DNA of 64,000 nucleotides from a virus (IMGVR_UViG_3300023053_000001:204459-268458); one strand, 5' to 3'; positions 8,933 through 46,192 are shown, counted from the first letter of the stretch. Notes: generated from the letters alone by a model not told the origin. Translations and numbers: made by a program.

Positions 8933-9064
8933 CCAGTTTTACGGTGGGGTCCGGGCGCGGACCCTGGGCGTAACAGCCCCCGCACTAGGGACTCTCCTCC
9001 GTCCCGGGCCCCACCACCTTTTACCGCAGCACCCATTTCCCTCGACTTCCTCAAAGAACTGACT

Positions 9065-10348
9065 ATGAACAACAGAACCCTGCTGCTGGACCACGGCTCC
9101 CACATCTGCGTGAGCGCATACTCGGACAAGGATCGACTGGAGGCATTGCGCCCGGCGGTCTATGAGATCGTCCTCACCGATACCGGTGTCAAGCTGTTCA
9201 CCCTGCAGGACAAGTTCTTGGTGTCTGAACGCAAGTTCGGTGACCACAACGAATTCCGCAAAGTCCTTACCGAGGACTACGATCGCGTTGGACCGTCCGT
9301 CGGCGTTATCCTGATCGGCATCAAGGGTAGCGGTAAGACCATGCTGGCCGAAGACGTGTGCAACCACTACCTGAAGCTGGGTCTGCCGGTGTTCCGCGTC
9401 AACACCATCCTGCCGTTGAGTGTGCTGGAGCTGGTGTCGGCCGCTGCCGGTCCGGCTGTGTGGTACTTCGATGAGTTCGGTAAGGTCTACCGCGAAGACA
9501 AGGACAACAGCAACCGCGACGACCTGTTGGGCTTCTTCGGGAGCGCCTCGCGCCTGGGATCGCTCTATCTGGTCACGGCCAACCATGACAACGAACTGAG
9601 CAACTTCATGGTCCATCGCCCGGGTCGTTTTCGCTACTCCTTCAGCTTCCACACCCCGAACCTGGAGCAGCTCGACGAAGTGTTCAATCACTACATGGTC
9701 GATGAAGAGCTGCGTCCGATGCTTCGTGCCTGGGTGAGTCAGAACGATGTCAGCTACGATGTGCTGTGCAGTGTACTGCCGGTCATTCGCGGTTGCAAGA
9801 CCCGCAAGGAAGTGTACGACAAGGCGAGGATCTTCAACATCCCCAGCTTCCCGAACTTCGGCATCACGCACTTCAACACCGTGGACTCGCTGTACATGGA
9901 TCGTTCGGCCGCTGATTTCATCAACCAGTCGAGCCCCATCCTCGGTTACGTCTGGAACAAGGCTTCGGGGGAAATCGCCTACCGCATCCGCGTGAATGTC
10001 CCGACCGAAACCGGCCAGCAGATGCGCGCAGAAATGCGTCGACTGAAGTTTGTGGACTTGGAGAAATATCAGGTCCCGTCCGAATTTGCCAACGTGGCCG
10101 AGTATGGCACGGTCAAGTACGAGTTCCCGGATGAGTCTGGTCTCATGTTGACCATGTCGATGGGCTGGTCCTGCCGTAGCTTCGAGGCAGCGACTACCGC
10201 AGAACATGCGATCACTCGCATGGAGCGCATCCAGGCAACGAACGAAGGTAAGGATCTGTCCGCTGAACCGCCGGGTCCACGTGGCATGGGTACGTACAGC
10301 GAACGCCCCGGTCGTACGTTCGCCCAACACGGCGGGCAAGGCTGGTAA
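9065..10348 (+). CDS. AAA+ ATPase (427 aa)
   Basis: Walker A GIKGSGKT, Walker B VWYFDEF, sensor-1 LVTANH, R-finger region HRPGRF. Confidence 0.9.
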   Translation: MNNRTLLLDHGSHICVSAYSDKDRLEALRPAVYEIVLTDTGVKLFTLQDKFLVSERKFGDHNEFRKVLTEDYDRVGPSVGVILIGIKGSGKTMLAEDVCNHYLKLGLPVFRVNTILPLSVLELVSAAAGPAVWYFDEFGKVYREDKDNSNRDDLLGFFGSASRLGSLYLVTANHDNELSNFMVHRPGRFRYSFSFHTPNLEQLDEVFNHYMVDEELRPMLRAWVSQNDVSYDVLCSVLPVIRGCKTRKEVYDKARIFNIPSFPNFGITHFNTVDSLYMDRSAADFINQSSPILGYVWNKASGEIAYRIRVNVPTETGQQMRAEMRRLKFVDLEKYQVPSEFANVAEYGTVKYEFPDESGLMLTMSMGWSCRSFEAATTAEHAITRMERIQATNEGKDLSAEPPGPRGMGTYSERPGRTFAQHGGQGW

Positions 10349-19821: not shown

Positions 19822-20811
19822 ATGCAACAGCAGAACATCTCCACCGACCGCGGCCGCGTCCGTCTGTACGCCTGCGGTGGCTTCGGTGTCAACATCGGTT
19901 CTTACTTCGATGGTTTCAAGGGCGAGATCGAACCGGGCTATTCCTCCGTGGAGCCGGCCTACATCGATACCTCCCGTTCCAACTTCAGCAAGGCCGGCCT
20001 GAGCGCCGACCAGGTCTTCGTGCTGGAAGGCGCCGATGGTTCGGGCGCGATCCGTTCGGAGAACCATCCCGAGATCCTGAAGAACATCCCCAACATCCTG
20101 CAGCAGTTCAAGCCGCTGGACTTCAACATCGTGGTCTTCTCCGGCGCCGGCGGTTCCGGTTCGGTGTTCGGTCCGCTGATCCTGTCCGAGCTGCTGGCCC
20201 GTGGCCTGCCGGTTATCGCCATCGTGGTCGGTGCCGATGATTCGGCCAAGGCTGCCGAGAACACCCTCAAGACCCTGCAGGGCCTGGAGCACACCGCCGA
20301 GAAGCGCGGCCTGCCGGTGGCGATGTACTACCGCCAGAACGACAACGGCGACAACAAGCGTTCGTCCATCGACAAGGACAGCCAGTACGTGATCAGCATG
20401 ATCTCGATCCTGTGCTCGCGCCAGAACGATGAACTGGACTCCAAGGACATCCAGAACTGGGTGCAATTCACCAAGGCCACCTCGGCCGAAGCTCGCCTGG
20501 CGCGCCTGATGATCTGCGATTCGACCAACGTCTCCCAGATCGCCGATCCGATCGCCATCGCCAGCCTGCTGGCCAGCCCGGATGACGCCGGCCGTGAGAT
20601 CGTGCCCGAGTACAGCTGCACCGGTTATCCGGAAGCCAAGGCCGTCCACAGCCTGCTGCCGCTGCACCTGGTGCTGACCTTCGAAGGCATCCCGGCCATC
20701 GCCAAGCGCCTGACCTCGCGCATCGCCGAGCTGGAAACCCAGCGCAAGGCCCGCGTGCGCCACGACTCGCTGCTGGGCAATGCCCAGACCGACGGCGACC
20801 TGGTCCTGTAA
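19822..20811 (+). CDS. phuZ: Phage tubulin PhuZ (329 aa)
   Basis: G-box YACGGFGVNIG, IDTS, tubulin signature GAGGSGSVFGP, short C-terminal tail ending DGDLVL. Confidence 0.95.
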   Translation: MQQQNISTDRGRVRLYACGGFGVNIGSYFDGFKGEIEPGYSSVEPAYIDTSRSNFSKAGLSADQVFVLEGADGSGAIRSENHPEILKNIPNILQQFKPLDFNIVVFSGAGGSGSVFGPLILSELLARGLPVIAIVVGADDSAKAAENTLKTLQGLEHTAEKRGLPVAMYYRQNDNGDNKRSSIDKDSQYVISMISILCSRQNDELDSKDIQNWVQFTKATSAEARLARLMICDSTNVSQIADPIAIASLLASPDDAGREIVPEYSCTGYPEAKAVHSLLPLHLVLTFEGIPAIAKRLTSRIAELETQRKARVRHDSLLGNAQTDGDLVL

Positions 20812-21346: not shown

Positions 21347-21547
21347 ATGAACCAGTTTGTCTGCAATCAGTGCTCGTGCATGGAAGTGACCGATCTGGTC
21401 TATCCGTGCCTGCCCTCTCTGAAGGAGGAGCAGCTGTGCTCCCTTTGCCGTACCGGCGTGTGGCATAACCGGTTCGAGCGTGAGTTCTACGACCCCACGA
21501 AACACGTGGCGATCAATCGCCCCAATGAAGGACTGAGCTTGGGATGA
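21347..21547 (+). CDS. Small Cys-rich, probably Zn-binding protein (66 aa)
   Basis: CNQCSC...CSLC; RBS agga. Confidence 0.75.
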   Translation: MNQFVCNQCSCMEVTDLVYPCLPSLKEEQLCSLCRTGVWHNRFEREFYDPTKHVAINRPNEGLSLG

Positions 21548-22077
21548 ACCAAGAAATCTTGCACGATCTTGCTGAAGCCCCTCCTTTCTTCGCTCGCGAA
21601 GAGGACGGCCACATCAACTGGCGCCCCCACACCGTCAACGAGGAACAGTCTGCATCGTTCTCGGTCCCGGTGTCTTACTCGCAGGTCTTTCCTCAAGAGG
21701 ACGTAGACCGCCTAGGTAAGTTGGGCGAAACCCCCGACACCCTAATGACCCACGCCTTCATGGCGTTGGAGGAAGGTCGCGGGATCAAGCCAGAAGGTGA
21801 GGACATGATTGACTTTGCTGTCAGTGGTGTCTGTAACAACATCATCAACCGTTTGTTTGATGAGGAGGACCAAGGAACCGATGACATTTCCGCCTCGGAT
21901 ATGGTCAACGAGTTCATGCCCCAACTGGTTCCCATGATCGAACGTACGGTGCGCATGACGGAGACGTACTTCCCCATGCCCGAACCGCAGCCTGACGACG
22001 ATGGATTCATCATGGATGCCAGTGTGACCAACTGCAATGACCGCACTGTGGTGAAGGTCACGTGGGCTAAGGGATGA
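21544..22077 (+). CDS. Hypothetical protein (177 aa), putative array member 1
   Basis: ATGA overlap; LGKLGETPDTLM motif; C-terminal beta-hairpin. Confidence 0.7.
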   Translation: MNQEILHDLAEAPPFFAREEDGHINWRPHTVNEEQSASFSVPVSYSQVFPQEDVDRLGKLGETPDTLMTHAFMALEEGRGIKPEGEDMIDFAVSGVCNNIINRLFDEEDQGTDDISASDMVNEFMPQLVPMIERTVRMTETYFPMPEPQPDDDGFIMDASVTNCNDRTVVKVTWAKG

Positions 22078-22499
22078 GCGAGTCCGTACGACTTTCCATT
22101 CCGGTTGGGGAAAGTGACTGGATCACCACCGAAGATCGCGGCATGTTAGCCGATCTTCGATTGGACCCGAACCTAGCCATCGAGTACGGGTTGCATTTCT
22201 GGGAGGACTGCTATCTGTCCGGTCTGGAAAAGCGACCCGACTTGTTCTACGACAAGATGGTCGGCGAAGTGGCTGAGATGTTGGACCCCATCGACGGGCA
22301 CGCTGAGAGCTACGAGCACCAGACCCGGTTCGCTCAACGGGCAGATCAGTTTGCCTGCATGATGGGCCGACATGCCCAGATCCTGTCCAGTCATTTGAGT
22401 CCCCGCGTGTTCCATTCCCTCGAAACGCGCCCAGAAAGCATCACGCTGTTGAAGATCAACGACCATCGTACGATCGTGCAAGTGAACTACGAGGACTGA
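22074..22499 (+). CDS. Hypothetical protein (141 aa), array member 2
   Basis: ATGA overlap; VRLSIP...LADLRLDPNLAIEYGL. Confidence 0.7.
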   Translation: MSESVRLSIPVGESDWITTEDRGMLADLRLDPNLAIEYGLHFWEDCYLSGLEKRPDLFYDKMVGEVAEMLDPIDGHAESYEHQTRFAQRADQFACMMGRHAQILSSHLSPRVFHSLETRPESITLLKINDHRTIVQVNYED

Positions 22500-22534
22500 G
22501 CCACTCCCCTTCACAGGGGAGTGGCTCTATGCCG
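22498..22534 (+). terminator. Stem-loop followed by TATGCCG
   Basis: gagccactcccct-tcac-aggggagtggctc-tatgccg. Confidence 0.7.
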
Positions 22535-22666
22535 TCTATTTCGCTCTCTGAGGCGCTTGCAGAGTAAAAAGCTACCAATCTACCTCTTCTTATGTAGTAC
22601 GCCTGTGCCGCCTCTTACGGACTTTCAGACATATATCATCCAAGAGTAGGCTATCCTGGAAATCCC

Positions 22667-23167
22667 ATGACCCACATTCCTCTGGTTGAAGCTCGTTACA
22701 CGTTCAGCCTACGCGATCATTTCGAAGGCTGTCTCCCCCTACTCCACAAATTGATGGAGAGACGCCTTCCTGAAATCTCCCGTATCAATGCCGTGATGTG
22801 GAAACGCCACGGCCTGTACGGAGGTACTCGCTACGATGCTCGACGCTACCGTCGGATCTACGAGCCGGCCTCCGATGCAGATGACACGCTTCTGATGCAG
22901 ATCTACGTGGCATTCATCATGCACTACATCACCCATGACTGTTATACCGTGATCGGTACGGCGATGGAGGCGATGTGGATGGATCTGATTTCGCGAGACG
23001 GCGAGTTCCGTAACGCAACCCTTCCTTTCGAGGACATGGCCCTGAGCCCGCTGTACTGGATTACCTCATCGCACTTGAGTGACCAGCTACGCACGATCTC
23101 TCTGGATCAGAATCTCGTATTTCGCATGTCTTACTTGGTGGCACCCCCACCATTACCACCTTTCTGA
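22667..23167 (+). CDS. Hypothetical protein (166 aa), array member 3
   Basis: RBS gga; first gene after an AT-rich spacer. Confidence 0.65.
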   Translation: MTHIPLVEARYTFSLRDHFEGCLPLLHKLMERRLPEISRINAVMWKRHGLYGGTRYDARRYRRIYEPASDADDTLLMQIYVAFIMHYITHDCYTVIGTAMEAMWMDLISRDGEFRNATLPFEDMALSPLYWITSSHLSDQLRTISLDQNLVFRMSYLVAPPPLPPF

Positions 23168-23178
23168 GGGACTCTGCA

Positions 23179-24033
23179 ATGTCTTCGCTCAACGTTCAGT
23201 ACATCGTGCCGCTCAACCATTTTGCAGAGCATCTGCAGATGGCCTTGCAGCGCCTCGGTGTCCAGCGCAAAGTTCCGTTCTTGGAAAAACAGTTGGAAAA
23301 TGCGCCGGCGTATGAGATCGTCTATGCGATGTTCAAGTTGAACCTGGAAGAGCGCATGCTCTGGATCAACAGCGACTGGCGCAACTGGTGGGAAGTCATG
23401 GAAGACGTGATGGGACGGCACATCTCCGGATGGATGTCGGAAAGTCAGTATCGTCCGGTGCACCGCAAGGGCGCCAAGGCAGTGGACGCCGAACTCACCG
23501 CCGAGGATGAACGCATCATCGACTACTACGATGCCATCTACACCGACGTGCTCGATCCACTGTGGCTGATGATGGAAAACATGATCGGTCAGCAGATGGG
23601 TATTGCTGAGAACACCTGGGACATGTTCACCCTGGAACGTCGCGATACCTATCAGGTGGAAAAGTCGACCACCGAAGAAGAGGTCTGGATTCCCGACCGC
23701 ATTGCCACGGTAGCCATCGACGGCAGTTCCACCCCGCAGCTGCGTCCGGTTCAGATCAACTCGCCCGTGTCCGGTCAGGTCCAGATCCGTCAGATCCCCA
23801 TCATGATCCAGAAGCTGGATCGGATCGATCTGAAGCTGAGCAACATGGGTGACTTCCGCATTCGCGAGTGGGAAGAGAACATCAAGTCCGGTAAGTGGAA
23901 GACCCGCGCCAAGGAAAACATGGATGTCCATTCGCTGGCACCGGATCATCTCTACGGTGAAGCCAATCGCGGTTCGCTGGCTGAGATTCGTCGCGCCGGT
24001 AAGACCGGTGGTATCCGTACGCTGGGCAAGTAA
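23179..24033 (+). CDS. Hypothetical protein (284 aa), array member 4 with a C-terminal extension
   Basis: RBS gagg; YIVPLNHF...LQRLGV. Confidence 0.75.
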   Translation: MSSLNVQYIVPLNHFAEHLQMALQRLGVQRKVPFLEKQLENAPAYEIVYAMFKLNLEERMLWINSDWRNWWEVMEDVMGRHISGWMSESQYRPVHRKGAKAVDAELTAEDERIIDYYDAIYTDVLDPLWLMMENMIGQQMGIAENTWDMFTLERRDTYQVEKSTTEEEVWIPDRIATVAIDGSSTPQLRPVQINSPVSGQVQIRQIPIMIQKLDRIDLKLSNMGDFRIREWEENIKSGKWKTRAKENMDVHSLAPDHLYGEANRGSLAEIRRAGKTGGIRTLGK

Positions 24034-24035
24034 CC

Positions 24036-24446
24036 ATGTCGGACTATCGCTGGCGAGTCAGTGAATTGATGGTCCTGATCTGGAACGTATTGGAGCACCA
24101 TCCCTATTCCCACGAATTCGGCGTACATGCAGTCTACGTACTGCAAGCGGCCGTAGAGCAATTCGGGGTAGAGTTCACCAAGCCGGTGAACCGCACACCT
24201 GAAGATTACCTGATGCGGATACCTGGAATGGACCCCGCTGCGGCAGCACGTGTACAGGGCGATCTGATGACCGCCTTGCGCATTACCCTGCCGTGGACGG
24301 AAGGACCACCATTGGACGAGGAACGTCTGGTGGGTACGATCAGTGGACCGATCCTGTCTGTCATGGTCGCCGAACGTGAAAATCTATCGACCCTGGCAGA
24401 TCAGAGTGACAGCTACATTCCCCGTCGCCATCGAGAACTTGTCTGA
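24036..24446 (+). CDS. Hypothetical protein (136 aa), array member 5
   Basis: Tight packing; C-terminal LVGTISGPILSVMV. Confidence 0.65.
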   Translation: MSDYRWRVSELMVLIWNVLEHHPYSHEFGVHAVYVLQAAVEQFGVEFTKPVNRTPEDYLMRIPGMDPAAAARVQGDLMTALRITLPWTEGPPLDEERLVGTISGPILSVMVAERENLSTLADQSDSYIPRRHRELV

Positions 24447-24449
24447 TTC

Positions 24450-24932
24450 ATGAGACACTACGTCATTATCCCCTTACGAGAGTTGCCTGCGGCGTATCAC
24501 CACCATGCCCGGGCGCTGCGTCGTTTGGGGATAGAGCCGCGAGGGCTGATCCGCTATGGCATCCTTTACGGAGCCAATCGGTATCTGTGGACAGCCCTCA
24601 ATGATCCGCTCAATGACGTTTATCGTGAGGTCATCCGATCTCCCCACGTCATTGATGATCCTGAGTTGACCGCTGACATCAACGCGACCTTGGGCGGCAC
24701 CTATCAGGAAATCTGCGGGTACCTCCAGCGTGACATCATGTCAACCCAAACCAACCTGCTGCGCCATGAGGTTCAGCAGCTGATGCACTCGTGCTTGGAT
24801 CACATCCAACTCATTGATCAGTATGTACTCCCGTTCATCTTTTCGCTGACCGGGTCGTCGTCAACATTGCGCTACGAAAAAGCTATCAGCGATGACAGCA
24901 TTCTAGTCAGCGTAGAGTCCCCTCTCATTTGA
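24450..24932 (+). CDS. Hypothetical protein (160 aa), array member 6
   Basis: HYVIIPLRE...LRRLGIEPRGLIRYGI. Confidence 0.7.
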   Translation: MRHYVIIPLRELPAAYHHHARALRRLGIEPRGLIRYGILYGANRYLWTALNDPLNDVYREVIRSPHVIDDPELTADINATLGGTYQEICGYLQRDIMSTQTNLLRHEVQQLMHSCLDHIQLIDQYVLPFIFSLTGSSSTLRYEKAISDDSILVSVESPLI

Positions 24933-24942
24933 AGATACGAAC

Positions 24943-25317
24943 ATGCTGCTCATGGTCCCCATGCCGATTCCTCACGAGGAGTTGGCCAATCTCGAGAAAA
25001 ACACGCTGGAGAAATACGGCATCTCCTTCGATGAATTGATGCGCACCGCGATCACCTCGTGGGAGTTCATGAGTAGCGATCGCTTGCCCACCATGGATGA
25101 CGTGGTGTTGGTGAGTGTCGATGCTGAACTCTTCCACGAGTGGTACGAAGCATCCCGCCGTTTGACTGACATCACCCATCAGCTGGGACGAGCGATGTAC
25201 CGCATGCTCGAACCGGGCTTGCAGGGAACGTTTGGTTCTGCCGATGAGATTGACATCCGTTACATCAAATCCGTACCCAACGGTATCCTGCTGGATATGC
25301 GTGGACGGGACGACTAG
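24943..25317 (+). CDS. Hypothetical protein (124 aa), array member 7
   Basis: LEKYGISFDELMRTAI...YIKSVPNGILLDM. Confidence 0.7.
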   Translation: MLLMVPMPIPHEELANLEKNTLEKYGISFDELMRTAITSWEFMSSDRLPTMDDVVLVSVDAELFHEWYEASRRLTDITHQLGRAMYRMLEPGLQGTFGSADEIDIRYIKSVPNGILLDMRGRDD

Positions 25318-25325
25318 GAACCTCC

Positions 25326-25778
25326 ATGCACCGTTTCCCTCCCCACAGTCGCTACATCCGACTCATCCTGCCCACGCGGGATGCGTTTGAGGAGTACGCC
25401 ACTGTTGAGCACCTGCTGGCGAAGATCAACATCACTCCCCGACACCTTATCGAACAGGTGGTGTTGTACATTGCCCAGAGCAGTGGTCCGGAAGCCTCGC
25501 GGATCTTGGCGTTGCAATCGGCCAAGCTGTACGCACTGCCCTATCAGGCAGTGACGACGCTGGTGTCTGACAACGTCTACAACTCGCGTGACTTCATGGC
25601 ATTGGAGCAGCGCGACCAACACGACATCAGTATCGTCGTGGAGAACATTGTCTTCCGCTCATACCTCCACCTGACGCAGCTGTTCGAGATGTTCTCGATC
25701 ACCGATGCGCAGCAGGAGATGATGAGCTTTTCCGGCTGGCAGGGATACGACCTCATCGTCGAGATCCCCAATACGTAG
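25326..25778 (+). CDS. Hypothetical protein (150 aa), array member 8
   Basis: RBS agga; IRLILPTRD...LAKINITPRHLIEQVV...GWQGYDLIVEI. Confidence 0.7.
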   Translation: MHRFPPHSRYIRLILPTRDAFEEYATVEHLLAKINITPRHLIEQVVLYIAQSSGPEASRILALQSAKLYALPYQAVTTLVSDNVYNSRDFMALEQRDQHDISIVVENIVFRSYLHLTQLFEMFSITDAQQEMMSFSGWQGYDLIVEIPNT

Positions 25779-25788
25779 GAACTGTCCT

Positions 25789-26247
25789 ATGCAAAACGTC
25801 ATTATCCCCACGCGGGATGTCATCGAACCCCATCTTCCGATGTGGTCGCAGATGCCGCCCGCGCTGGGGCTGGGACCGGTGATTACCACACTGGTCCAAC
25901 TGATCTTCAACGGTAACAACGCAGGCGATCAATGTCGGGCGAACTTCTACATTCCGGATGTCATGTACGTCTTCATCGAATTCCTGCTCACTCCGGACAT
26001 GCGCAAGTTTTTGAACGACACCTATACCGACGAACAGGTTCAAGCATGGATCTCTACGTTGTTCACGATCGTTCCTGGCTTGGCCAATCAACTGGTAGCC
26101 CTGTGCCCGCCCATCGTTAATTCGGTGGTGGGTTCCTCCTATGTCTCCAATGTGGGGTATGCGGAGATGCGGGGATTGGATGTGATGTTGTTTGTGGAAA
26201 CCTTTGACATGGGAGCCAAGCATGACCAGCGATACGCTGCCGGGTAA
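25789..26247 (+). CDS. Hypothetical protein (152 aa), array member 9
   Basis: RBS agga; NVIIPTRDV...AEMRGLDVMLFVE. Confidence 0.7.
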   Translation: MQNVIIPTRDVIEPHLPMWSQMPPALGLGPVITTLVQLIFNGNNAGDQCRANFYIPDVMYVFIEFLLTPDMRKFLNDTYTDEQVQAWISTLFTIVPGLANQLVALCPPIVNSVVGSSYVSNVGYAEMRGLDVMLFVETFDMGAKHDQRYAAG

Positions 26248-26599
26248 AATCCAGTTGGGATCAGGTGCTGCTATTGAGACCTACCTAACTGAGATGGTCC
26301 CGGCAAATTCGGGTTTTTATGACCTCGGTATGGTTGGACAGGCCGTAGTGAACCATCTGGCCGGTAGCTTCCAGCCCCACCCCAATCGGGTGGCTGGACT
26401 TCATCAGGAGCTGTATCGCTTCTTCGCACCTCACGATCACATCTACGTCGATCGAGCACTGCGGTTACTGGTGGAGCAGTACGATGCTGATTTCTTGGCG
26501 TTGCGCCGAACCTTCCCGGCCGGCTGGGATCTGCAAGGCCGATTCCGCTACTACTTCTTCAAATGGTCCGGGGACATCATGGTGATCGCGTTGCGCTAA
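26222..26599 (+). CDS. Hypothetical protein (125 aa), array member 10
   Basis: RBS ggag; C-terminal FFKWSGDIMVIALR. Confidence 0.65.
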   Translation: MTSDTLPGKIQLGSGAAIETYLTEMVPANSGFYDLGMVGQAVVNHLAGSFQPHPNRVAGLHQELYRFFAPHDHIYVDRALRLLVEQYDADFLALRRTFPAGWDLQGRFRYYFFKWSGDIMVIALR

Positions 26600-26637: not shown

Positions 26638-27054
26638 ATGAGCATCGTAGCACCTACCGATCTCCCGTTTGGCGCCGTAGTCAGCTTTGAGGTCTACCCG
26701 GCCCAGATGCTCGGCAACGAATTCAACAACGCCAAAGTCCTGGCCATCGTCGACGCCGACACGGCCAAGTTCTGGATCGACCCGGTCGCCCAGCACGCCA
26801 ACGTCTATGCGACCCTGCCGCCGAACACGGTCCCGGACAAGTTCGACAGCTACCTCTACGTCAAGCTCAAGCTGGCCAGTGGCATGACCACTGCCGTGGG
26901 CCTGCCGTGGATTCGCAAGGAGAGCCTGAAGATTGCCACCACCCGCAAGGTGCTCATCACCGTGGAGAACGTCTCCCCGGAAGATGATGGCAAGCTGCTC
27001 AAGGCACTGTCGTCCAACGGCTTCACAGCAGCAGCAATCCAAGACATTCAGTAA
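26638..27054 (+). CDS. Conserved beta-rich protein (138 aa; phiKZ gp49-like position)
   Basis: RBS agga; strong codon bias; immediately upstream of the DNA polymerase. Confidence 0.75.
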   Translation: MSIVAPTDLPFGAVVSFEVYPAQMLGNEFNNAKVLAIVDADTAKFWIDPVAQHANVYATLPPNTVPDKFDSYLYVKLKLASGMTTAVGLPWIRKESLKIATTRKVLITVENVSPEDDGKLLKALSSNGFTAAAIQDIQ

Positions 27055-27159: not shown

Positions 27160-27193
27160 GGCGCCGGGTTACCCCGGCGCCTCTTTTATGCCG
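27160..27193 (+). terminator. Stem-loop followed by TTTTATGCCG
   Basis: ggcgccggg-ttac-cccggcgcc-tcttttatgccg. Confidence 0.75.
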
Positions 27194-27251: not shown

Positions 27252-29681
27252 ATGAAGCATTTCGTCAAAGAGCTGGACCACTACAAACGTGATTACGACC
27301 TGCTCGGCACGTACGTGGAAGACCAGGCCAGCCACATGCACCTGATGACCGGCCAGCCGCTGGAGGTCTGTCGTGACTTCGTCCGTAAGACCATCGGGCC
27401 GGGCGGTCGTCGTGAGTTGGTTATCCCCGTAGCGCATGTCTTGGTGCGCAACAAATTCGGCGATCGTGAACGCAAAGCCATTCCGTTTGATCGGCTCTTG
27501 GCTGACATTCGTGAAAAGCGCGAAATCCTGTCCCCGTCGCTGACTGCCTATACCCATCCGGATGAACGGGTCTCGATTCTGGCAGAGTACATTCAAGGCA
27601 ACTTGAAGAAGCGCAAGGAAGCCAAGCACGCCAAGTTCGTCGCTGAGATGAAGGGCGAAGCAGTGCTGGCAGCGATCTTTGAAGCGGCCCAGACCACGCT
27701 GAAGATCAAGAACAACTCCCTGTCCGGTGCGCAGTGCTCGCCGTACACGGTGCTGTGGAATAAGTCGGCGCACTCCACGCTGACTTCGACTTGCCGTACG
27801 GCCACCTCCTACGGTAATGCGAACAACGAGAAGTTCCTGATGGGTAACCGGCACTATTGGTCGCCGGAGATCACCAAGGCCAACATCATCTCGATCATCA
27901 ACCACAGCGATTACGAGGCCATTGCCCGGACCATGCAGCGTCATGGCCTGAAGGCACCGACGGTCGAACAGACCATGGCCTGCATCACCCGCTCCACCGA
28001 GTTCTACTGGCGCAGCCCCAAGGCGATGGAAGCCATCCAGGAACTGGTGAGTAACCTCAGTGACCTGCAGCGCTCGGCATTTGTCTTCACCTCCGATCTG
28101 TACCACCTGGCGCAGGTCAATCCCGAGTTCGTTCGTGCCTTCTTCACTCGCATGTCCATCCGTTCCACGGAAAACCTGCTGGTGCCGGATGCGGACTTCT
28201 ATGTCAACGAGCAGGATGACAACCTGCGTGCATTCGTCTCGATGCTGTGCGCCCGCCAGTTGCGCGGTGGCAACATGCAAGAGGCGTTGGTGCGTGCACT
28301 GGTCTATCCCTTCGGTGTCCCTGAGCAGGTGCTCGACGATGCTGATCGGTACTACGATCTCAACGTTGCCGAGAAGATGTCCGGCTTCATCAGCATGCTG
28401 CGCGGTAAGCGTAAGGAAGAGGCTGTTGAGAAGCTGAAGAAGGAATGTCGCGAGCTGTGGAAGATCCTGTACTGGGAACGCCACGGTCTGGAAGAGGCCA
28501 AGGTCAAGAAGTATCGTGGGAACTTCCCGGTTTCCGACGGTACTGAAGCCAACGACTATGCCATCATCGGCGCGATGACGCAGCAGGTGATGTACGCACT
28601 GGACGGCTATGAGGATTTGATCCAGAGTTTCTGGACCACGCCCAATCTGCCGGCTTCTGTGTACTACATGCCGTCCATCATCCGACGTACGGCGATCACC
28701 TCCGATACCGACTCCACGATCTTCACGGTGCAGTATTGGACCGAGTGGTACGTAGGCAAGCTGGACTTCACCGACACCTCCATTGCCGTGGCCAACACGG
28801 CGGTGTATCTGGCCGGTCAGCTGATCCGACACATCCTGGCCACGTTCTCGGCCAACATGGGTGTGGCGCAGAAGGACCTGAACCGCCTGTCGATGAAGAA
28901 CGAATACTACTTCCCGGTGTTCGTCCTGACAGCGCGTGCCAAGCACTACTTCGCCTACATCTCTGCGCAGGAAGGTAACGTCTTCAAGGAAATGAAGATG
29001 GAGATCAAGGGCGTGGGCTTGCGTAACTCCAATGTCCCGCCGCGCCTGACCAAGGCCTCGCACAAGCTGATGCGCCACCTGATGGACTCGGTGATGGCAG
29101 GTGAGGCGATCTCGATCAAGCAGGTGTTGCGTTACATCGCCAAGAAGGAAATCGAAATCCGCGATTCGGTATTTAGCGGTAAGTTCGACTACCTCAAGTC
29201 GATGAACATCAAGTTGCGTGAGTCCTATTCGGAAACGGCTAAGTCCACCAACTACGATCACTACTTGCTGTGGGAATCGGTGTTTGCTCCCAAGTACGGC
29301 TCTGCAGGTGCACCGCCGTACCGGGCCATCAAGATCCCGATGGAAACCGACTCCCCGGCCAAGATGAAGACGTGGCTGGATTCGATCAAGGACCGCTCCA
29401 TCGCCAAGCGCATGGAGGAGTACCTGAAGTTGAAGGGCAAGAAGTCTGGCATGAAGCAGTTGATGTTGCCAGAGACCATCGTCGGCAGTATCGGTATCCC
29501 CGAAGAGATGTTGGGTGCGGTGAATATTCGCGGTACGATTGCACAGGTCATGGAAGGGTTCTACATCATCCTCGAATGCCTGGGTTACTATCGTGCCAAT
29601 GACTACAACACCAAGCTGGTCTCTGACGATGAATGGTTGCTCGATCCGGAATGGGAATTCGGCGAGTTGAACCTGGACTAA
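27252..29681 (+). CDS. Family B DNA polymerase, C-terminal (fingers/palm/thumb) subunit (809 aa; phiKZ gp50-like)
   Basis: Motif B KIKNNSLSG, motif C ITSDTDSTIF, KHYF and IKGVGL motifs; lacks the exonuclease domain and motif A. Confidence 0.88.
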   Translation: MKHFVKELDHYKRDYDLLGTYVEDQASHMHLMTGQPLEVCRDFVRKTIGPGGRRELVIPVAHVLVRNKFGDRERKAIPFDRLLADIREKREILSPSLTAYTHPDERVSILAEYIQGNLKKRKEAKHAKFVAEMKGEAVLAAIFEAAQTTLKIKNNSLSGAQCSPYTVLWNKSAHSTLTSTCRTATSYGNANNEKFLMGNRHYWSPEITKANIISIINHSDYEAIARTMQRHGLKAPTVEQTMACITRSTEFYWRSPKAMEAIQELVSNLSDLQRSAFVFTSDLYHLAQVNPEFVRAFFTRMSIRSTENLLVPDADFYVNEQDDNLRAFVSMLCARQLRGGNMQEALVRALVYPFGVPEQVLDDADRYYDLNVAEKMSGFISMLRGKRKEEAVEKLKKECRELWKILYWERHGLEEAKVKKYRGNFPVSDGTEANDYAIIGAMTQQVMYALDGYEDLIQSFWTTPNLPASVYYMPSIIRRTAITSDTDSTIFTVQYWTEWYVGKLDFTDTSIAVANTAVYLAGQLIRHILATFSANMGVAQKDLNRLSMKNEYYFPVFVLTARAKHYFAYISAQEGNVFKEMKMEIKGVGLRNSNVPPRLTKASHKLMRHLMDSVMAGEAISIKQVLRYIAKKEIEIRDSVFSGKFDYLKSMNIKLRESYSETAKSTNYDHYLLWESVFAPKYGSAGAPPYRAIKIPMETDSPAKMKTWLDSIKDRSIAKRMEEYLKLKGKKSGMKQLMLPETIVGSIGIPEEMLGAVNIRGTIAQVMEGFYIILECLGYYRANDYNTKLVSDDEWLLDPEWEFGELNLD

Positions 29682-37314: not shown

Positions 37315-37890
37315 ATGAGCAACGAGCCCAAAATCTCCGAGTCGCAGAAGCTCAACGGCCCTGCGCTGGACATGGCGCTCGATGACATCCTCCGACTGTC
37401 CAAAGAAGACGTGCCGCGGCTGCCCGCGGCCGCCTTCATTGCACTGATCCTCACCCCGCTCACCGAGCGGAACATTCCGCTGTTCCGGGAAAACTGGATG
37501 CGGATTGCCGGGGCGCTCCAGCGCCCCATTGAGGTAGTGGATGCGTCGGGGGAATCGATCCATCGTGCGCCCTCCATCGTGATGCAGATTCCGGCACGCG
37601 TGTCTGAAAGTCATCGGGACTCCCTGTCGGAGATCTCCGAGCAGGCTGCCAAATACTCCGAATACAACGGACGTATGGGGCAGATGTACATGGCTGACAA
37701 CATGCGCGGTCGGAACATTCCTGTCATTGGCCACCTCCAGACGATGCTGGACTGGAATGTGTTGGCCCAGAAGCTTGATCAACCTGCGCCCTTTGCTGGA
37801 CTGGCGGAGGTCAAGACCTCTTCCTCTTCCACCGGTGCAGTCAGTGATGATGCGCCCATGTTCACCCAGAGCGCTGATGAAGACTTCTGA
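37315..37890 (+). CDS. Conserved hypothetical protein (191 aa)
   Basis: Tight packing in the operon. Confidence 0.7.
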   Translation: MSNEPKISESQKLNGPALDMALDDILRLSKEDVPRLPAAAFIALILTPLTERNIPLFRENWMRIAGALQRPIEVVDASGESIHRAPSIVMQIPARVSESHRDSLSEISEQAAKYSEYNGRMGQMYMADNMRGRNIPVIGHLQTMLDWNVLAQKLDQPAPFAGLAEVKTSSSSTGAVSDDAPMFTQSADEDF

Positions 37891-39019
37891 AATCGACGTA
37901 ACTGAACTGGCGTCCGCAGTGCGTAAATCGCTGCGGACGCTCAGCGTCAGCGATGCACATCTCGGGCATCGTAAAACCCCAACCGAGTTCATCATTGCCA
38001 ACCTGGATCGGGACTTCGCACCCGGTGCATGGTGGGACGATGTGGATGTGTTGTTCTTCGTTGGCGATCTGTTTGACCGGGGCTTGACTGCCTATGACCC
38101 GCAGCTGTTCATGATTACTGCGTGGTTCAGGCGGATCTTGCGTACGGCCAAAAAGCACAACGTCATCGTACGTGCCGTGGAAGGTACTCCGCTCCATGAG
38201 TGGGGTCAGTCGCGCTGGATGGAAGAAGCCAACGCCGGTATCGGTGCAGACTTCAAATGGGTGAAGACCCTGAGCATCGAGCATATCGACCAACTGGGCA
38301 TTGACGTGCTCTACGTTCCCGATGAGTGGAAACCGAACCCGGACGATGTGTGGAAGGATGTGGTACGAGCGCTGGACGATGCGGGCTTGCAGCAGGTGGA
38401 TTACACCTTGTTCCATGCCACGTTCGATCATCAGCTCCCGGACATTGACATCCCCAAACATGTCTCCAAGCGGTATCAGGAGATCACTCGCCGCTATGTG
38501 TTCTCTGGTCACATCCACCAGAGTTCGCGCAACGGCAATATCCTGTGTAATGGTTCTTATGACCGCATCTCGCACGGCGAGGAAGGGCCTAAGGGCTTCT
38601 GGGATGTGACGTGGAACAACGGGCGTGACAAGATCACGTTCGTGGAAAACACCGGCGCCATGATCTACAAGACGTACGACTGCACCGACAAGTCGATGCC
38701 TGAGATCTTGGCACATCTCAAAGATGCTGCTAATTTGCCGCAGAACAGCCATGCGCGTATCAAGGCCCGTCGGAGCGATCCGATCCTGGCCAGCATGCAA
38801 GAGGTCAAGAGTATGTACCCGCACCTCTACTGGTCTGAAAAGACGGTGGACGCCAAGGACCTACAGAAGACCATGTTGGTGGACAAGCGTTCAGAATTCC
38901 GGCAGGTCCAGCTCACTGAGCAGAACTTGCCTGAACTGTTGCTGGCGCGCATCAGCGCCAAGACCACTGACCCCATCTTGCTGCAGCGCTGCAAGGAACT
39001 GCTGGCGGAGAACTGCTGA
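37877..39019 (+). CDS. sbcD: SbcD/Mre11-like metallophosphoesterase nuclease (380 aa)
   Basis: SDAHLG, FVGDLFD, VEGTPLHE, FHATF, FSGHIH; likely start ATG 37877. Confidence 0.88.
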   Translation: MKTSEIDVTELASAVRKSLRTLSVSDAHLGHRKTPTEFIIANLDRDFAPGAWWDDVDVLFFVGDLFDRGLTAYDPQLFMITAWFRRILRTAKKHNVIVRAVEGTPLHEWGQSRWMEEANAGIGADFKWVKTLSIEHIDQLGIDVLYVPDEWKPNPDDVWKDVVRALDDAGLQQVDYTLFHATFDHQLPDIDIPKHVSKRYQEITRRYVFSGHIHQSSRNGNILCNGSYDRISHGEEGPKGFWDVTWNNGRDKITFVENTGAMIYKTYDCTDKSMPEILAHLKDAANLPQNSHARIKARRSDPILASMQEVKSMYPHLYWSEKTVDAKDLQKTMLVDKRSEFRQVQLTEQNLPELLLARISAKTTDPILLQRCKELLAENC

Positions 39020-39867
39020 TGAACGATAAGCTGCTCGCCCTGATTGATGGGCGGGAAAAGGGAGCGGTGCCGGTTTCGATCGGCACCTCCCTGGCCCTTG
39101 AAGGGGCGTTTGGCGAGTACCCGGATCGTCCGGTCTCCCCTGCGCCCATCCTTAAAGTCAAAGAAGTCTGGTTCAATGTACGCACCGTTATCCGAAACCT
39201 CATAGAAGCCATTCCTACTGATCAGCGCGAGGCGCTGACCGCGGAGGCGCTATGGCCGGCCTTGGTTGAGGAGATGACCATTATCGATGCTGCGGTGGTC
39301 CGCGGATCGACGGGTCTGACGCGTGCTGTGTTCTACCTGAACAACTACCTGCACCTGCAGCGAAAGTTCCCCCGTGCCATCTTGCGTCACGCCCACACTC
39401 CCAAGCAGGTCTTCATGGCCAGCATGGAAGATAAGCTGTTGCGTATGTTGGCCAAAGATCCGGTGTCTGTTGATTATCGTACGTTCCGCACGCACGAGAT
39501 CGATGGGCAGCATCCGGAAAGCTTCATCGTGACCCACTATCCTGTCGATTTGCTCTCCCGGTACTCGTTCAAGAACTTGGAACTGCTCGAATCCCACACC
39601 GGGGCTATCAAGCCCTATTCGGAGTGGCATACCAAGCTCACCAACGGGAACGCCTTGGAGAACCTGCCGTTCTGTCCTCTGACCCTGCAATTGTTCGGTG
39701 ACAAGGGGAATCACTTCTCCTCGATGCCGACCAAGATCAGGCAGCAGATTTTGGACATTGCCGATGCCGATCATTGGTCATCGGTCACCACCCGCGACAA
39801 GATTGTCCTGTCGATGCGCCGGATCGCACACCCGGCTGACAAGGCGATCTTGATGGCGATGCTGTAA
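39019..39867 (+). CDS. Conserved Chimalliviridae protein (282 aa; phiKZ gp66-like position)
   Basis: Stop/start overlap with the sbcD-like gene. Confidence 0.7.
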   Translation: MNDKLLALIDGREKGAVPVSIGTSLALEGAFGEYPDRPVSPAPILKVKEVWFNVRTVIRNLIEAIPTDQREALTAEALWPALVEEMTIIDAAVVRGSTGLTRAVFYLNNYLHLQRKFPRAILRHAHTPKQVFMASMEDKLLRMLAKDPVSVDYRTFRTHEIDGQHPESFIVTHYPVDLLSRYSFKNLELLESHTGAIKPYSEWHTKLTNGNALENLPFCPLTLQLFGDKGNHFSSMPTKIRQQILDIADADHWSSVTTRDKIVLSMRRIAHPADKAILMAML

Positions 39868-39914
39868 TTCTTGACCCATCGTATTCATTAGTTGTACTGC
39901 ACCAAGGACCTGAC

Positions 39915-40661
39915 ATGAGCTACAACCAACAGGGTGGCCAGCGCCCCCCGCGTAAACTGACCATCCTCGACGATTTCCGCATGCGTCTGGTCGGTCCGGT
40001 CGCCAATGGCGGCGAGCGCCCCGTGACCCTCGTCTGCACCGTCAAGAAGAACCGTCCGGTCATCGTGGTCAAGACCAACGTGCCCGGCGACAAGCAGTTC
40101 GGCCAGATCCAGGCCGAATGGCCCGATGCCATGAGCTTCGAGATGTTCCTCGAAGAACTCGAGAACGCCGACAAGATCGAAGCGACCAAGCGTACGGCCG
40201 GCAAGATCTCCGACTTCCCCTTCCAGCAGGGTGGTCGTTCCAAGGAACTGAAGCTGGCAGCCACGGCCTTCGTCGGCCGCGAACAGGACGGTACGGTGTA
40301 CATCGCCGTGGTCTCCTGGGACCAGTCGCGCCCGGTCGTCAAGATCCCGGTGCGCCCCAGCCAGTACATGAACTGGATCGGTCCGGACGGCCAGCCGCTG
40401 TCGGCTGAAGCGGCCAGCCTGCGCTTCGCCCGTGCCTACGCGCGCACCGTGCGTGGCATCATGCACCAGGTCCTGATCAACGAGTACGAGCCGCCGGCTC
40501 CGCGTCCGCAGAACGGCGGCGGTGGTGGCGGTTACGGTGGTGGCGGTGGTGGCGGTGGCTACCAGAACCAGAACCGTGGCGGCGGCCAGCAGCAGTCGGG
40601 CGGTGGTGGCGGTGGTGGTAACAGCGACGCCGGCCTCGGCGGCGACGAATGGCCGATGTAA
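39915..40661 (+). CDS. chmC: ChmC-like nucleus-associated RNA/ssDNA-binding protein (248 aa)
   Basis: Compact domain plus Gly/Gln/Asn-rich tail; immediately upstream of the gp68-like subunit and picA (recalled synteny). Confidence 0.7.
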   Translation: MSYNQQGGQRPPRKLTILDDFRMRLVGPVANGGERPVTLVCTVKKNRPVIVVKTNVPGDKQFGQIQAEWPDAMSFEMFLEELENADKIEATKRTAGKISDFPFQQGGRSKELKLAATAFVGREQDGTVYIAVVSWDQSRPVVKIPVRPSQYMNWIGPDGQPLSAEAASLRFARAYARTVRGIMHQVLINEYEPPAPRPQNGGGGGGYGGGGGGGGYQNQNRGGGQQQSGGGGGGGNSDAGLGGDEWPM

Positions 40662-40669
40662 TTCGGCTG

Positions 40670-40704
40670 GCATAAAAGCCGGGCTCCGTAATGGAGCCCG
40701 GTTT
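40670..40704 (+). terminator. Stem-loop after chmC
   Basis: gcataaaa-gccgggctcc-gtaat-ggagcccggt-tt. Confidence 0.7.
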
Positions 40705-40732
40705 CCTATTTAACTCTGGGGAGAGTCCAACT

Positions 40733-40999
40733 GTGTTCTTTCTTGCATGCCTTGGCTTTGCAACTGCTGTCAATGCGTTAACCTACCTATACCTGCGTCT
40801 GAATCGTTATCGATTCAGGCGGGGTGAGAACCTGTGTGTGGTAATCACTACCATGCTGATTTGGATACCAATGCTGATGGGGGCGAACGCCGGCTCTAAG
40901 AGCGTCATGGCGATGGCGCTATGGGTATTGGTGACTGTGGGCAATCTGGTGCTTTACCTCAAATACATGCACCGCAATCATCAGACTGCCGTGAGTTGA
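40733..40999 (+). CDS. Small AT-rich membrane protein (about 88 aa, 3 TM)
   Basis: GTG start after ggggaga; three hydrophobic segments; low GC. Confidence 0.55.
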   Translation: MFFLACLGFATAVNALTYLYLRLNRYRFRRGENLCVVITTMLIWIPMLMGANAGSKSVMAMALWVLVTVGNLVLYLKYMHRNHQTAVS

Positions 41000-41020
41000 T
41001 CCAAAAATAACTCAGTCACT

Positions 41021-41039
41021 TATTATCCCTTAGTGAGCC
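41021..41039 (+). promoter_or_regulatory. Candidate early promoter TAyTATC-nn-TTAGTGAGCC, copy 1
   Basis: 16/19 identical to 46193-46211; both precede nvRNAP subunit genes. Confidence 0.55.
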
Positions 41040-41066
41040 CAGCGCTTACGAGTAATTGGAGTCCCC

Positions 41067-42659
41067 ATGAAGATTGAGATTTTGACCGAAAACGGGGCAT
41101 CGCCACGTGTAGTTACCGTATCCCATCAAAAGCGTAATGCGGATGGCTCGGTGGATACGGTGTCCCTGGAATTCAACATCAGCACGTACACCAAAACCTC
41201 GGATCGCTCCGAGTCGGTGGACACGACCAAGATGTTCAACGAGATCAATTCCTACTTGGCCACCCGGCCGCAGCAGGAACTCGATGCCATCATGAGCGTG
41301 TATGAACGTGCGCACGAAGTGTTCCAGCATCAGTACGAGCTGAGCGCTTTGGAAAAGACGCTGCAGAAGTTGACCCAGGAACTGGACAGTTACCTGGACC
41401 TCAAAGCGATCCGCGACTGGGTCGTGTTCCATTCCAAGATCGGTATTCCGGCCTCGGTCCATGAGACCTACGCCGACAACGACATGCAGGACTACGTGGA
41501 TCGCACGTACGTCCGCAAGGACTATCTGGACTTGGTCGCCATGACCATTGCTCTGCGTCCGATGGTGCCGATCTGGGGCGAGTACATCGCCATGAATGAA
41601 ACGGTGACCGGCAGTAACATGAAGGAGAACGTGGCCTTCATGCTGCTGTACTACACCAAGCTGGTGGTCAGTGAACCGATGGAGCGCCTGCGCCGTTACG
41701 TGGCAGCCACCATTGCCAACTCCAAGGAGAACACCGTCAATGCGGCGGCGATTCTGACCACCCTGGGTTCGACCAGCACGCCGGACTGGGTGACCTCGCT
41801 GGCCGTGGTGCGTCGACTGGCCATTGGTGAGATCACCATCACCGATGACAACTCCTCCATCGTGACCAACATCTTCCAGTACATCGGAAACACCCTGCGC
41901 TCGCTGGACCGCAAGTTCGGTAAGCAGTTCGGTGGTAAGGTCACGGACAAGTCCGATGTGACGCCCGGTCGCGGTGGGTCGGATGAACAATCCGTCTCGG
42001 CACCGGAACGTTACAAGGTCAAGCAGGTCGTGGCCGATGGCGACATCGTCGCATTGTCGGTCTACACCGAAGACGTGCATGGCATGGTGGCACGTATTGA
42101 CGATACGGTTCCCAAGGAACTGATCGACCAGTGCCTGAAGTGCGTGTCTGTCTTGGAGCATGAAGCCATCCGCCGACATCAGGTTACGCTGGTGCAGTGG
42201 GTGCTGAAGAATGCCCTGCCTGCCCACAGCGGCGATTCTCTGGACAAGCCGGCCATCATGCGTGCGATGGCAGCTACCCAGGCTTTGCTGTGGCACTGGC
42301 AGTTCTTCGACCTGGCGGCGTTGACCACCGCAACCCCGCTGCCGATCACCGGCGGTTACGGTTTCGGCAGCAATGACAACAAGGGTCGGTTCCCCAAGGA
42401 AATCGTGGAACGCTTCACCGAGATGTACCCGCATCAGCGCAACGGACAGGGCAAACAAGCCAGCTCGTGGCGCATGAACAATGCCGGTGCAGTGGCCATC
42501 GATACCTTCCAAGAGTTGATCGCTCCGCATGACTGGCGACTCCACTGCCCGCAGGAACTCATGGTGCGCACCAACCGCATCGAGAACCAACGCAGGATGG
42601 TGGTGCCTGGCGATGTCCATAGCCAGTTGGCCCGCATGCTCATTCGCATCCATCAATAA
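41067..42659 (+). CDS. nvRNAP promoter-specificity (sigma-like) subunit (530 aa; phiKZ gp68-like)
   Basis: Size and position between chmC and picA; assignment by recalled synteny. Confidence 0.75.
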   Translation: MKIEILTENGASPRVVTVSHQKRNADGSVDTVSLEFNISTYTKTSDRSESVDTTKMFNEINSYLATRPQQELDAIMSVYERAHEVFQHQYELSALEKTLQKLTQELDSYLDLKAIRDWVVFHSKIGIPASVHETYADNDMQDYVDRTYVRKDYLDLVAMTIALRPMVPIWGEYIAMNETVTGSNMKENVAFMLLYYTKLVVSEPMERLRRYVAATIANSKENTVNAAAILTTLGSTSTPDWVTSLAVVRRLAIGEITITDDNSSIVTNIFQYIGNTLRSLDRKFGKQFGGKVTDKSDVTPGRGGSDEQSVSAPERYKVKQVVADGDIVALSVYTEDVHGMVARIDDTVPKELIDQCLKCVSVLEHEAIRRHQVTLVQWVLKNALPAHSGDSLDKPAIMRAMAATQALLWHWQFFDLAALTTATPLPITGGYGFGSNDNKGRFPKEIVERFTEMYPHQRNGQGKQASSWRMNNAGAVAIDTFQELIAPHDWRLHCPQELMVRTNRIENQRRMVVPGDVHSQLARMLIRIHQ

Positions 42660-42681
42660 CTAACCATAGCGAATCTCTCCA

Positions 42682-44181: not shown

Positions 44182-44202
44182 TCCACAACGAGGAAACCAA
44201 TC

Positions 44203-45768: not shown

Positions 45769-45771
45769 GCG

Positions 45772-45810
45772 GCATAAAGGCGAGGGCCCCCAGCGGGGCC
45801 CTCGTTCTTG
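45772..45810. terminator. Bidirectional terminator
   Basis: gcataaagg-cgagggcccc-cagc-ggggccctcg-ttctt. Confidence 0.75.
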
Positions 45811-45811
45811 A

Positions 45812-46153
45812 CTACTTGATTTTTTGCATCGTTGTGCGGTGGATGTTGGTCAGCATCTCCACCATGTTGAAGTTCGGAATCACCAGCTGCATTTTCTCCA
45901 GTCGGTAATCCTCCGGGCTATTGAACCCGTTCATTCGCATGATGATCCAGTGGTACTGAGGTGCAAACTTCTCCTCTACCAACAGACCCATCAGATCACC
46001 TTCGTACCGCAAGGCGTTGTAAGGGGCGATGTTGCGAACCGTGTTGTCCGGCCGCGCCAGCAGGATGGGCAGATGACATTCGATCATCGTCCGCCACGAT
46101 TCGCTGTAATAGATCGAATCCCCCTCATCGGGAATTCGTTTGGCCAAGGTCAT
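45812..46153 (-). CDS. Small conserved protein (113 aa), weak LysM/P2 gpX-like resemblance
   Basis: Likely start MTLAKR at 46153; YEGDLMGLL...WIIMRMNGFNSPEDY; antisense inside the early block. Confidence 0.6.
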   Translation of the reverse strand: MTLAKRIPDEGDSIYYSESWRTMIECHLPILLARPDNTVRNIAPYNALRYEGDLMGLLVEEKFAPQYHWIIMRMNGFNSPEDYRLEKMQLVIPNFNMVEMLTNIHRTTMQKIK

Positions 46154-46192
46154 GGTCACGAGCAGCCTCGCAGTAAACTTGTTTGAAACACA

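Follow-up and report, generated by a model that had tools for sequence, protein, structure and literature searches.

How a nucleus-forming phage chooses the proteins that enter its nucleus is an open question. The components known so far are Imp1/PicA and a few adaptors from Pseudomonas phages (Imp2, Imp4, Imp5 and Imp7), which have been reported not to be conserved beyond that group. Genetic work in phiKZ identified orf47 (Imp2) and orf48 (Imp4) as import factors: Nlp1 is the one cargo whose import requires Imp2, which itself enters the nucleus by way of Imp1, a protein that forms puncta at the shell, while Imp4 is needed only for the import of TopA (Kokontis et al., bioRxiv 10.1101/2024.03.27.586873). 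Later work has called both proteins cargo-specific adaptors, and phiKZ imp2 and imp4 show no disruptive transposon insertions (bioRxiv 10.1101/2025.11.23.690004). Here we describe a block of ten small open reading frames (ORFs), o1 to o10, that lies between the genes for PhuZ and DNA polymerase in a 64,000-nucleotide stretch of viral DNA (IMGVR_UViG_3300023053_000001:204459-268458, hereafter the window). The source of the window is a chimallivirus, that is, a nucleus-forming jumbo phage, represented by a metagenomic contig; the IMG/VR viral contig that holds the window is 190 kb long and is estimated to be 71% complete.

Results

Evidence for a paralogous family of seven ORFs

The initial annotation had read ten consecutive plus-strand ORFs of 124-284 amino acids (aa) as a tandem array of ten highly diverged paralogs, each combining an N-terminal strand that ends in proline, a helix-turn motif and a terminal hairpin. 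All ten ORFs are present (Table 1), and every motif peptide quoted for them occurs in their translations. Pairwise BLASTP among the ten returned nothing significant (the best pair, o6-o8, reached an E-value of 0.012 over the N-terminus only), and a hidden Markov model (HMM) of the N-terminal motif, applied to the ten ORFs in leave-one-out fashion, recovered only o6 convincingly, so that the motifs are not provable from the window alone. HHalign with single sequences or two-sequence profiles gave weak N-terminal matches only, and scans of the ten proteins against Pfam and PHROGs, as well as of 35 o8 relatives against PHROGs, found nothing.

We built a profile from o8 and the ortholog in its nearest IMG/VR relative and searched it against 1.84 billion representative proteins, which yielded 40 representative clusters at E<=1e-3, nearly all of about 135-180 aa and matched over their full length (4 were partial or longer). 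Positional orthologs from 8-10 related phages were then separated by strict phmmer clustering into one ortholog group per position, with positions A to J corresponding to o1 to o10. Comparison of these groups by HHalign connected A with B at 95% (E 2.5e-8, 132 columns), B with G at 95-96%, G with H at 90-93%, F with H at 94-95% (124-128 columns), H with I at 97% (96.7-97.1%), H with J at 94% (93.9%) and I with J at 96%; the two subgroups of position I, I1 and I2, matched one another at 96.8%. The links among these seven groups (A, B, F, G, H, I and J) span 110-140 columns and are thus essentially full-length, and two controls, the SH3-fold protein SH3DP and a 66-aa zinc ribbon encoded in the same block, scored at most 0.4% against the array families.

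Searches against the 735 ORFs of the genome gave a consistent picture. With a superfamily HMM from which the family in question had been removed, o1, o2, o6, o7 and o8 each ranked first, at E-values from 0.02 to 1e-9 (6.8e-9 for o6 and 0.004 for o7), while o9 and o10 were detected only with the profiles of their own orthologs. HMMER cross-matches among the same ORFs led from the I profile to o8 (E 2.3e-6), from F to o8 (0.002) and from B to o1 (0.004). Among the relatives, phmmer reciprocally joined a B ortholog (L024_3789) to a G ortholog (L025_9607) at E 8e-5, and an o9 ortholog (L002_7102) matched the H profile at E 4e-7. Outside the array, the 190-kb contig yielded no further paralog.

The superfamily consensus displays three hallmarks (hILPT; lL..hghd...lheyvl..W; rWlG.dlVl.v), which are the three motifs of the initial annotation and are likewise conserved within the o8 family; a C-terminal hairpin motif, W.G.DhVh, is common to o10 and position H. 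Judged from these comparisons, o1, o2, o6, o7, o8, o9 and o10 are very probably ancient tandem duplicates of one gene. The proposed array of ten paralogs accordingly stands for seven of its ten members (HHalign 90-97%), with o5 a borderline case, o3 unlinked and o4 resembling phiKZ gp43.

The remaining ORFs o3, o4 and o5

Orthologs of o3 occur in all relatives, and the best HHalign match of position C to any family profile is at most 3.6%. The identical o3 protein is also on record in 24 contigs, the longest of 268,472 bp, so that a more complete assembly of this phage exists in public data. Position E (o5) aligned collinearly with G (38.6%) and with J (21.2%), and by eye o5 possesses an N-terminal strand and a hairpin-like motif followed by an extra PERLRR tail. 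Deeper profiles of o3 and o5, which gained 2-3 sequences each, left the outcome unchanged.

Position D (o4) scored at most 1.6% against the array family profiles and 88.5% against the phiKZ gp43 family (E 2.7e-6, 141 columns, aligning o4 residues 10-234 with gp43 residues 8-150), and with moderate confidence we regard o4 as a homolog of the N-terminal half of gp43. A weak match of 35% between an o5-type group, E2, and the C-terminal part of the gp43 homolog of Psa21-type phages vanished when the merged profile was used. It may be that o4 and o5 together represent a split gp43, or that gp43 is a fusion.

Predicted fold of the family

An AlphaFold2 model of o8 was built on a 35-sequence alignment, with a predicted local distance difference test score (pLDDT) of 91 and a predicted template modelling score (pTM) of 0.82. 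Its elements are a strand (residues 10-15) that stops at Pro16, a run of helices reaching residue 132, with a long one at 95-122, and a hairpin (134-139/142-148), with the N-terminal strand pairing in the same chain with the C-terminal hairpin to form a three-stranded sheet against the helical bundle. The helix-turn motif corresponds to the junction (33-37) between helices 25-32 and 38-52, and the architecture deduced by the initial annotation from the sequence alone is thereby borne out for o8. On this model the family domain comprises about 125-150 aa and runs from a strand ending in (L/I)P(T) to a C-terminal hairpin (W-x-G-x-x-h-V-h); the folds of o1-o7, o9 and o10, excepting o3, o4 and o5, are predicted from their homology to o8.

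Solved structures resembling the o8 model were not found (best Foldseek E-value against the PDB, 0.57), nor did the o8-family profile match any PDB sequence. By contrast with the PDB, the BFVD collection yielded matches: the 50 listed for the o8 model are almost all uncharacterised chimallivirus proteins, the best with template modelling (TM) scores of 0.72 and 0.67. Named entries among those listed come from EL, RSL2, RP12, RP31, PhiEaH1, Ea35-70, Eowyn, Phabio, Noxifer, Psa21 and 201phi2-1, often as several matches per phage with adjacent accession numbers. Two PhiEaH1 matches have lengths that fit gp028 and gp029 within that phage's own PhuZ-polymerase array, and the entry at TM 0.67 has 153 aa, the length of LUCX_52, the o8 ortholog of Xanthomonas phage LucasX, a correspondence by length only. 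Searching the AlphaFold DB clusters with the o8 model returned one unnamed match of 126 aa. The family domain has so far been seen only in chimalliviruses.

Within the o8 family, near-invariance is confined to P16, T17, L31 and W138. Fully invariant polar residues are absent, a pattern that speaks for a scaffold or binding protein and not for an enzyme.

Correspondence with the phiKZ slot of Imp2 and Imp4

In phiKZ the genes follow in the order gp43 to gp48, gp49, gp50 (DNA polymerase), gp52 (on the minus strand) and gp54 (chimallin), and gp49 matches the SH3DP of the window at 99.6% by HHalign. The slot of the array, from phuZ to SH3DP and the polymerase, therefore equals phiKZ gp43-gp48, which include Imp2 (gp47) and Imp4 (gp48). 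The statement in the initial annotation that some phiKZ import cofactors map before the DNA polymerase gene proved right, Imp2 and Imp4 lying directly upstream of gp49 and gp50.

A family of 174-183 aa from Psa21-type phages is homologous to Imp2 (HHalign 97.9%) and served for a structural comparison. In the AlphaFold2 model of this Imp2 homolog (pLDDT 81) a strand (13-19) is followed by helices, then by a long helix (106-135) and a hairpin (138-148/153-162), the same order of secondary-structure elements as in the o8 model. Behind the Psa21 ortholog, its BFVD matches are led by the published Imp2 homolog, PhiPA3 gp044 (TM 0.77). Of the top 50 BFVD matches, 18 are common to the Imp2-homolog and o8 models; this shared set includes the best match of o8, proteins of RSL2, RP12, EL and Noxifer, and a 153-aa entry of the length of LUCX_52, which the Imp2-homolog model matched at probability 0.85 and TM 0.39-0.43. 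The search with the Imp2-homolog model also returned a 126-aa Psa21 protein with the length of the gene at the Imp4 position in the Psa21 array. Taken together, the models suggest a structural link of moderate strength between the array family and Imp2.

Conservation of the block and codon use

The region from PhuZ to chimallin is a conserved, operon-like block of the chimallivirus. Contigs encoding matches to the o8 profile share a constant gene order: DUF7484 (minus strand), PhuZ, zinc ribbon, 9-10 small genes, SH3DP, the divergent polymerase, a minus-strand gene of about 365 aa, and chimallin. The block is syntenic in at least eight relatives (contigs L016, L019/20, L021, L024, L025/26 and L002, together with LucasX and RTH11), of which the Xanthomonas phages vB_XciM_LucasX and RTH11 are cultured carriers whose genes are annotated as hypothetical proteins. 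No match was found by blastn with the region or tblastn with o8 among 50,697 phage records, and no close relatives emerged when o6, SH3DP (o11) and the Imp1 homolog were used to look for related loci.

Relative to L016, the closest relative, array proteins are 27-55% identical, while PhuZ and the polymerase are 76-79% identical (polymerase 79%) and SH3DP is 66% identical; measured in this way, the array copies change at roughly twice the rate of core genes. At the same time, every position is represented by an ortholog of its own, with order preserved and copy number nearly constant, in relatives whose polymerases are only 37-48% identical, and differences in copy number are small (L025 has no I and L019 no A). 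By this pattern the duplications are older than the divergence of the clade, and the array would consist of old, subfunctionalised genes in stable specialisation. Positional orthologs kept in order across such distances are not what a turnover-prone arms-race repertoire would show.

Codon use agrees with the weaker bias that had been noted for the array. GC content at third codon positions (GC3) is 0.60-0.79 and the effective number of codons (ENC) 38-56 in the array, against 0.87 and 28 in PhuZ, 0.83 and 33 in SH3DP, and 0.78 and 38 in the DNA polymerase.

Features of the block and of neighbouring regions

The features are collected in Table 1. For o10, the ATG at 26222 (125 aa) is more likely to be the start than the TTG at 26192 (135 aa), as its orthologs start near this ATG. 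The SH3DP gene matches Pfam PF20287 at E 3.9e-32 (110.9 bits against a gathering cut-off of 25).

Table 1. Coordinates of the small-gene block, its flanking genes and other features of the window
Feature	Position	Strand	Description
PhuZ	19822-20811		Precedes the zinc-ribbon-like gene
CxxC...CxxC zinc-ribbon-like protein, 66 aa	21347..21547	+	First gene of the block; not a member of the paralog family
o1 (position A), 177 aa	21544..22077	+	Probable family member with N-terminal extension of ~35 aa
o2 (position B), 141 aa	22074..22499	+	Probable family member
o2-o3 spacer	22500..22666	+	GC-rich hairpin at 22500-22528, TATGCCG, conserved blocks to ~22640
o3 (position C), 166 aa	22667..23167	+	Positional ortholog group, no family link
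o4 (position D), 284 aa	23179..24033	+	Putatively homologous to phiKZ gp43 family proteins over their N-terminal half
o5 (position E), 136 aa	24036..24446	+	Borderline candidate member
o6 (position F), 160 aa	24450..24932	+	Probable family member
o7 (position G), 124 aa	24943..25317	+	Probable family member
o8 (position H), 150 aa	25326..25778	+	Best-sampled probable member, hub of the family
o9 (position I), 152 aa	25789..26247	+	Divergent probable member; position equivalent to phiKZ Imp2
o10 (position J), 135 aa	26192..26599	+	Divergent probable member; position equivalent to phiKZ Imp4
SH3DP (o11), SH3-fold protein associated with divergent phage DNA polymerase	26638..27054	+	Closes the block; not a member
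Terminator-like GC hairpin with T-run	27160..27181	+	9 GC pairs, tail TCTTTTATGC; between SH3DP and polymerase
Divergent family-B DNA polymerase	27252..29681	+	Orthologs carry PF20286 divDNApol
SbcD-like gene	37727-39019		Within the gp65-gp73-like region
Gene at ChmC/Imp6 position	39915-40661		Within the gp65-gp73-like region
Imp1/PicA homolog	42682-44181		33% identical to its counterpart in the phage of L002
Gene at gp70 position	44203-45768		Within the gp65-gp73-like region
nvRNAP beta subunit	46230-48323		Within the gp65-gp73-like region

The spacer between o2 and o3 is found at the same position in all nine of the relatives compared, and its stems vary between phages yet stay paired, by eye. 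The blocks that follow TATGCCG are GTAAAA.CTAC, TCTTATGTA and TTTCAGACATATATCAT. Between the window and L016 the spacer is nearly identical, while the proteins flanking it are 55% and 30% identical. Rfam returned no match for the spacer, and RNAalifold found no consensus structure in a rough alignment of it. Going by position and conservation, the spacer probably combines a terminator with a promoter, dividing the array. The hairpin between SH3DP and the polymerase ends in TATGC, as does the hairpin after o2.

Orthologs of the zinc-ribbon-like gene occupy the same position in L016, L019, L021, L024, L002 and LucasX. In L025 a protein of 227 aa carries the counterpart in its C-terminal portion (phmmer E 1e-13 to 1e-15), and one ortholog shows a weak match to zf_DPOE_2. 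In the Psa21-type phages (L003 to L015, at about 8950-9860) two families lie between SH3DP and the polymerase, and these are mutual paralogs (HHalign 97.4%). Further downstream in the window, positions 37727-48323 are syntenic with phiKZ gp65 to gp73.

Discussion

We propose that the seven paralogs are Imp2-like licensing adaptors, a reading to which, taken as a whole, we assign a probability of roughly 45%. A given paralog would bind a single cargo protein of the phage (or host), hand it over to the import machinery of Imp1/PicA at the chimallin shell, and probably be imported itself. The slot shared with Imp2 and Imp4, combined with the topology and structural neighbours of the Imp2 homolog, makes licensing adaptors the most likely function. 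The suggestion of import adaptors in the initial annotation thus gains the same slot as Imp2 and Imp4 and the same predicted topology as Imp2, but not sequence homology to Imp2.

Several results weigh against this proposal. Comparison of all array profiles and of the merged superfamily profile with phiKZ gp47 and with a 26-sequence Imp2-family profile gave at most 1% by HHalign, also when secondary structure was included, the array profiles showed no sequence link to phiKZ gp44-gp48 by the same method, and the merged superfamily profile matched neither the phiKZ nor the Psa21-type families. Direct structural cross-matches are moderate (TM 0.39-0.54, root-mean-square deviation 6-8 Å). Imp4 is linked to the array by position only, and phiKZ gp48 and the Psa21-type gene in the same slot matched at 14% by HHalign. 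Furthermore, o3 and o5, conserved as they are in the block, sit poorly with the family by sequence, as does o4; adaptor function is known only for the phiKZ and PhiPA3 proteins; and a replication role would be just as compatible with co-transcription of the array with SH3DP, just before the polymerase gene. What we infer is that the family shares its ancestry with Imp2, binds cargo and depends on Imp1.

The position of the block invites the alternative that the paralogs are themselves nuclear cargo, namely small accessory subunits of replication or recombination that are made with SH3DP and the polymerase and could stand in for the clamp, clamp loader and primase, which are not recognisable in this phage group. 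In every relative the block runs directly into SH3DP and the DNA polymerase; a possible role as polymerase subunit has been proposed for SH3DP, in a group without primase and clamp (PMC7824862); and stable one-to-one orthology fits subunits with fixed partners. We nevertheless consider such a role unlikely, as the syntenic gp47 and gp48 of phiKZ were found genetically as import and not replication factors, a strong terminator-like hairpin stands between SH3DP and the polymerase gene, the array proteins evolve at twice the rate of the polymerase, and the o8 family holds no conserved nucleic-acid-binding or enzymatic motif. Seven old paralogs in fixed order and number are also typical of the subunits of one complex, and the paralogs could form a hetero-oligomeric structure at the nuclear shell, such as a docking site or a component of a pore; the exposed three-stranded sheet of the o8 model could pair edge to edge, and Imp1 does form puncta at the shell. 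Against an assembly of this kind, which we judge quite improbable, stand the import of phiKZ Imp2 into the nucleus and its requirement for a single cargo, as well as the absence of I from L025 and of A from L019.

The initial annotation had offered as a second option a diversified anti-defence repertoire built on one fold, to which host takeover may be added. Small, fast-evolving and weakly codon-adapted proteins of no known family in a putative early region would suit such a repertoire. The stable positional orthology and near-constant copy number in very distant relatives, where no lineage shows expansion or loss of its own, disfavour it, as does the core-like behaviour of phiKZ imp2 and imp4, which lack disruptive transposon insertions, and we regard it as very unlikely. 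The N-terminal strand, helix, turn and helix could also be read as a ribbon-helix-helix (RHH) of the CopG/Arc type, in which case the array would encode regulators or antitoxin-like proteins; the RHH_1 consensus (hxhxLP..E, helix, G-x-x turn, helix) is similar by eye. None of the ten ORFs matched a Pfam RHH family at E<=1, however, and the o8-family profile had no PDB sequence match. RHH chains were not among the fold matches listed for the models, an absence that alone would not exclude this identity. The o8 model pairs the N-terminal strand with the C-terminal hairpin of the same chain in a 150-aa domain, and homology is full-length, extending beyond the first 45 residues; on these two grounds we rejected the RHH identity, to which we attach hardly any credence.

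Returning to licensing adaptors, the proposal may be widened to all chimalliviruses. The small-gene blocks before SH3DP and the polymerase in phiKZ (gp44-gp48), Psa21, RSL2, PhiEaH1 and the window could all belong to one ancient Imp2-fold family, in which every paralog would serve one conserved nuclear cargo as its dedicated licensing adaptor, with 5-9 per genome forming a karyopherin-like repertoire of which Imp2 and Imp4 would be the first two found. This extension is tentative and, on balance, doubtful. Should the array prove to be a family with the Imp2 fold, adaptors would be general and ancient in chimalliviruses, hidden by extreme divergence, and every nucleus-forming phage would bring with it a ready list of candidate adaptors.

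The family is absent from Pfam and PHROGs and has no solved-structure relative by sequence or fold search. In our literature search we found no paper describing the block as a paralog family, and the comparative study that named the SH3 protein mentions, of the block, that protein only (PMC7824862). Since orthologs are present in the two culturable Xanthomonas phages LucasX and RTH11, the adaptor prediction can be tested directly.

In these two phages the array is represented by LUCX_46 to LUCX_54 of LucasX and the corresponding genes of RTH11. They are positional orthologs of the window genes by HHalign at 99% for H, 98% for E, 97% for D, 95-97% for B (o2 matched its LucasX and RTH11 orthologs at 97% and 95%, respectively), 62-94% for J, 70-88% for G and 82% for F. 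They differ in being only 20-30% identical to the window proteins, and tblastn with o8 misses all of them. An unannotated gap in the LucasX record (52464-52827; L028 16800-17163) holds an open frame, MIIVIPIREIWQRF...RFTGPDLVLSL, apparently the F-type (o6-like) gene otherwise missing from this array.

In comparison with the phiKZ gp43 family, o4 stands at the corresponding place in the block but is shorter than gp43 (357 aa, and 305 aa in Psa21-type phages). Imp4 (phiKZ gp48, 127 aa), like o10, is small and lies immediately upstream of SH3DP, and inspection by eye shows a strand at its N-terminus and a hairpin at its C-terminus. Imp2 (phiKZ gp47 and PhiPA3 gp044) provides a close parallel to the array: it occupies the same slot, two genes upstream of SH3DP, is of similar size, is restricted to chimalliviruses, and is predicted to begin with a strand and end in a hairpin, with a helical bundle that includes a long helix between them. 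In the models the Imp2 family differs by an extra C-terminal helix and longer strands, and, of the two, only Imp2 has a demonstrated function.

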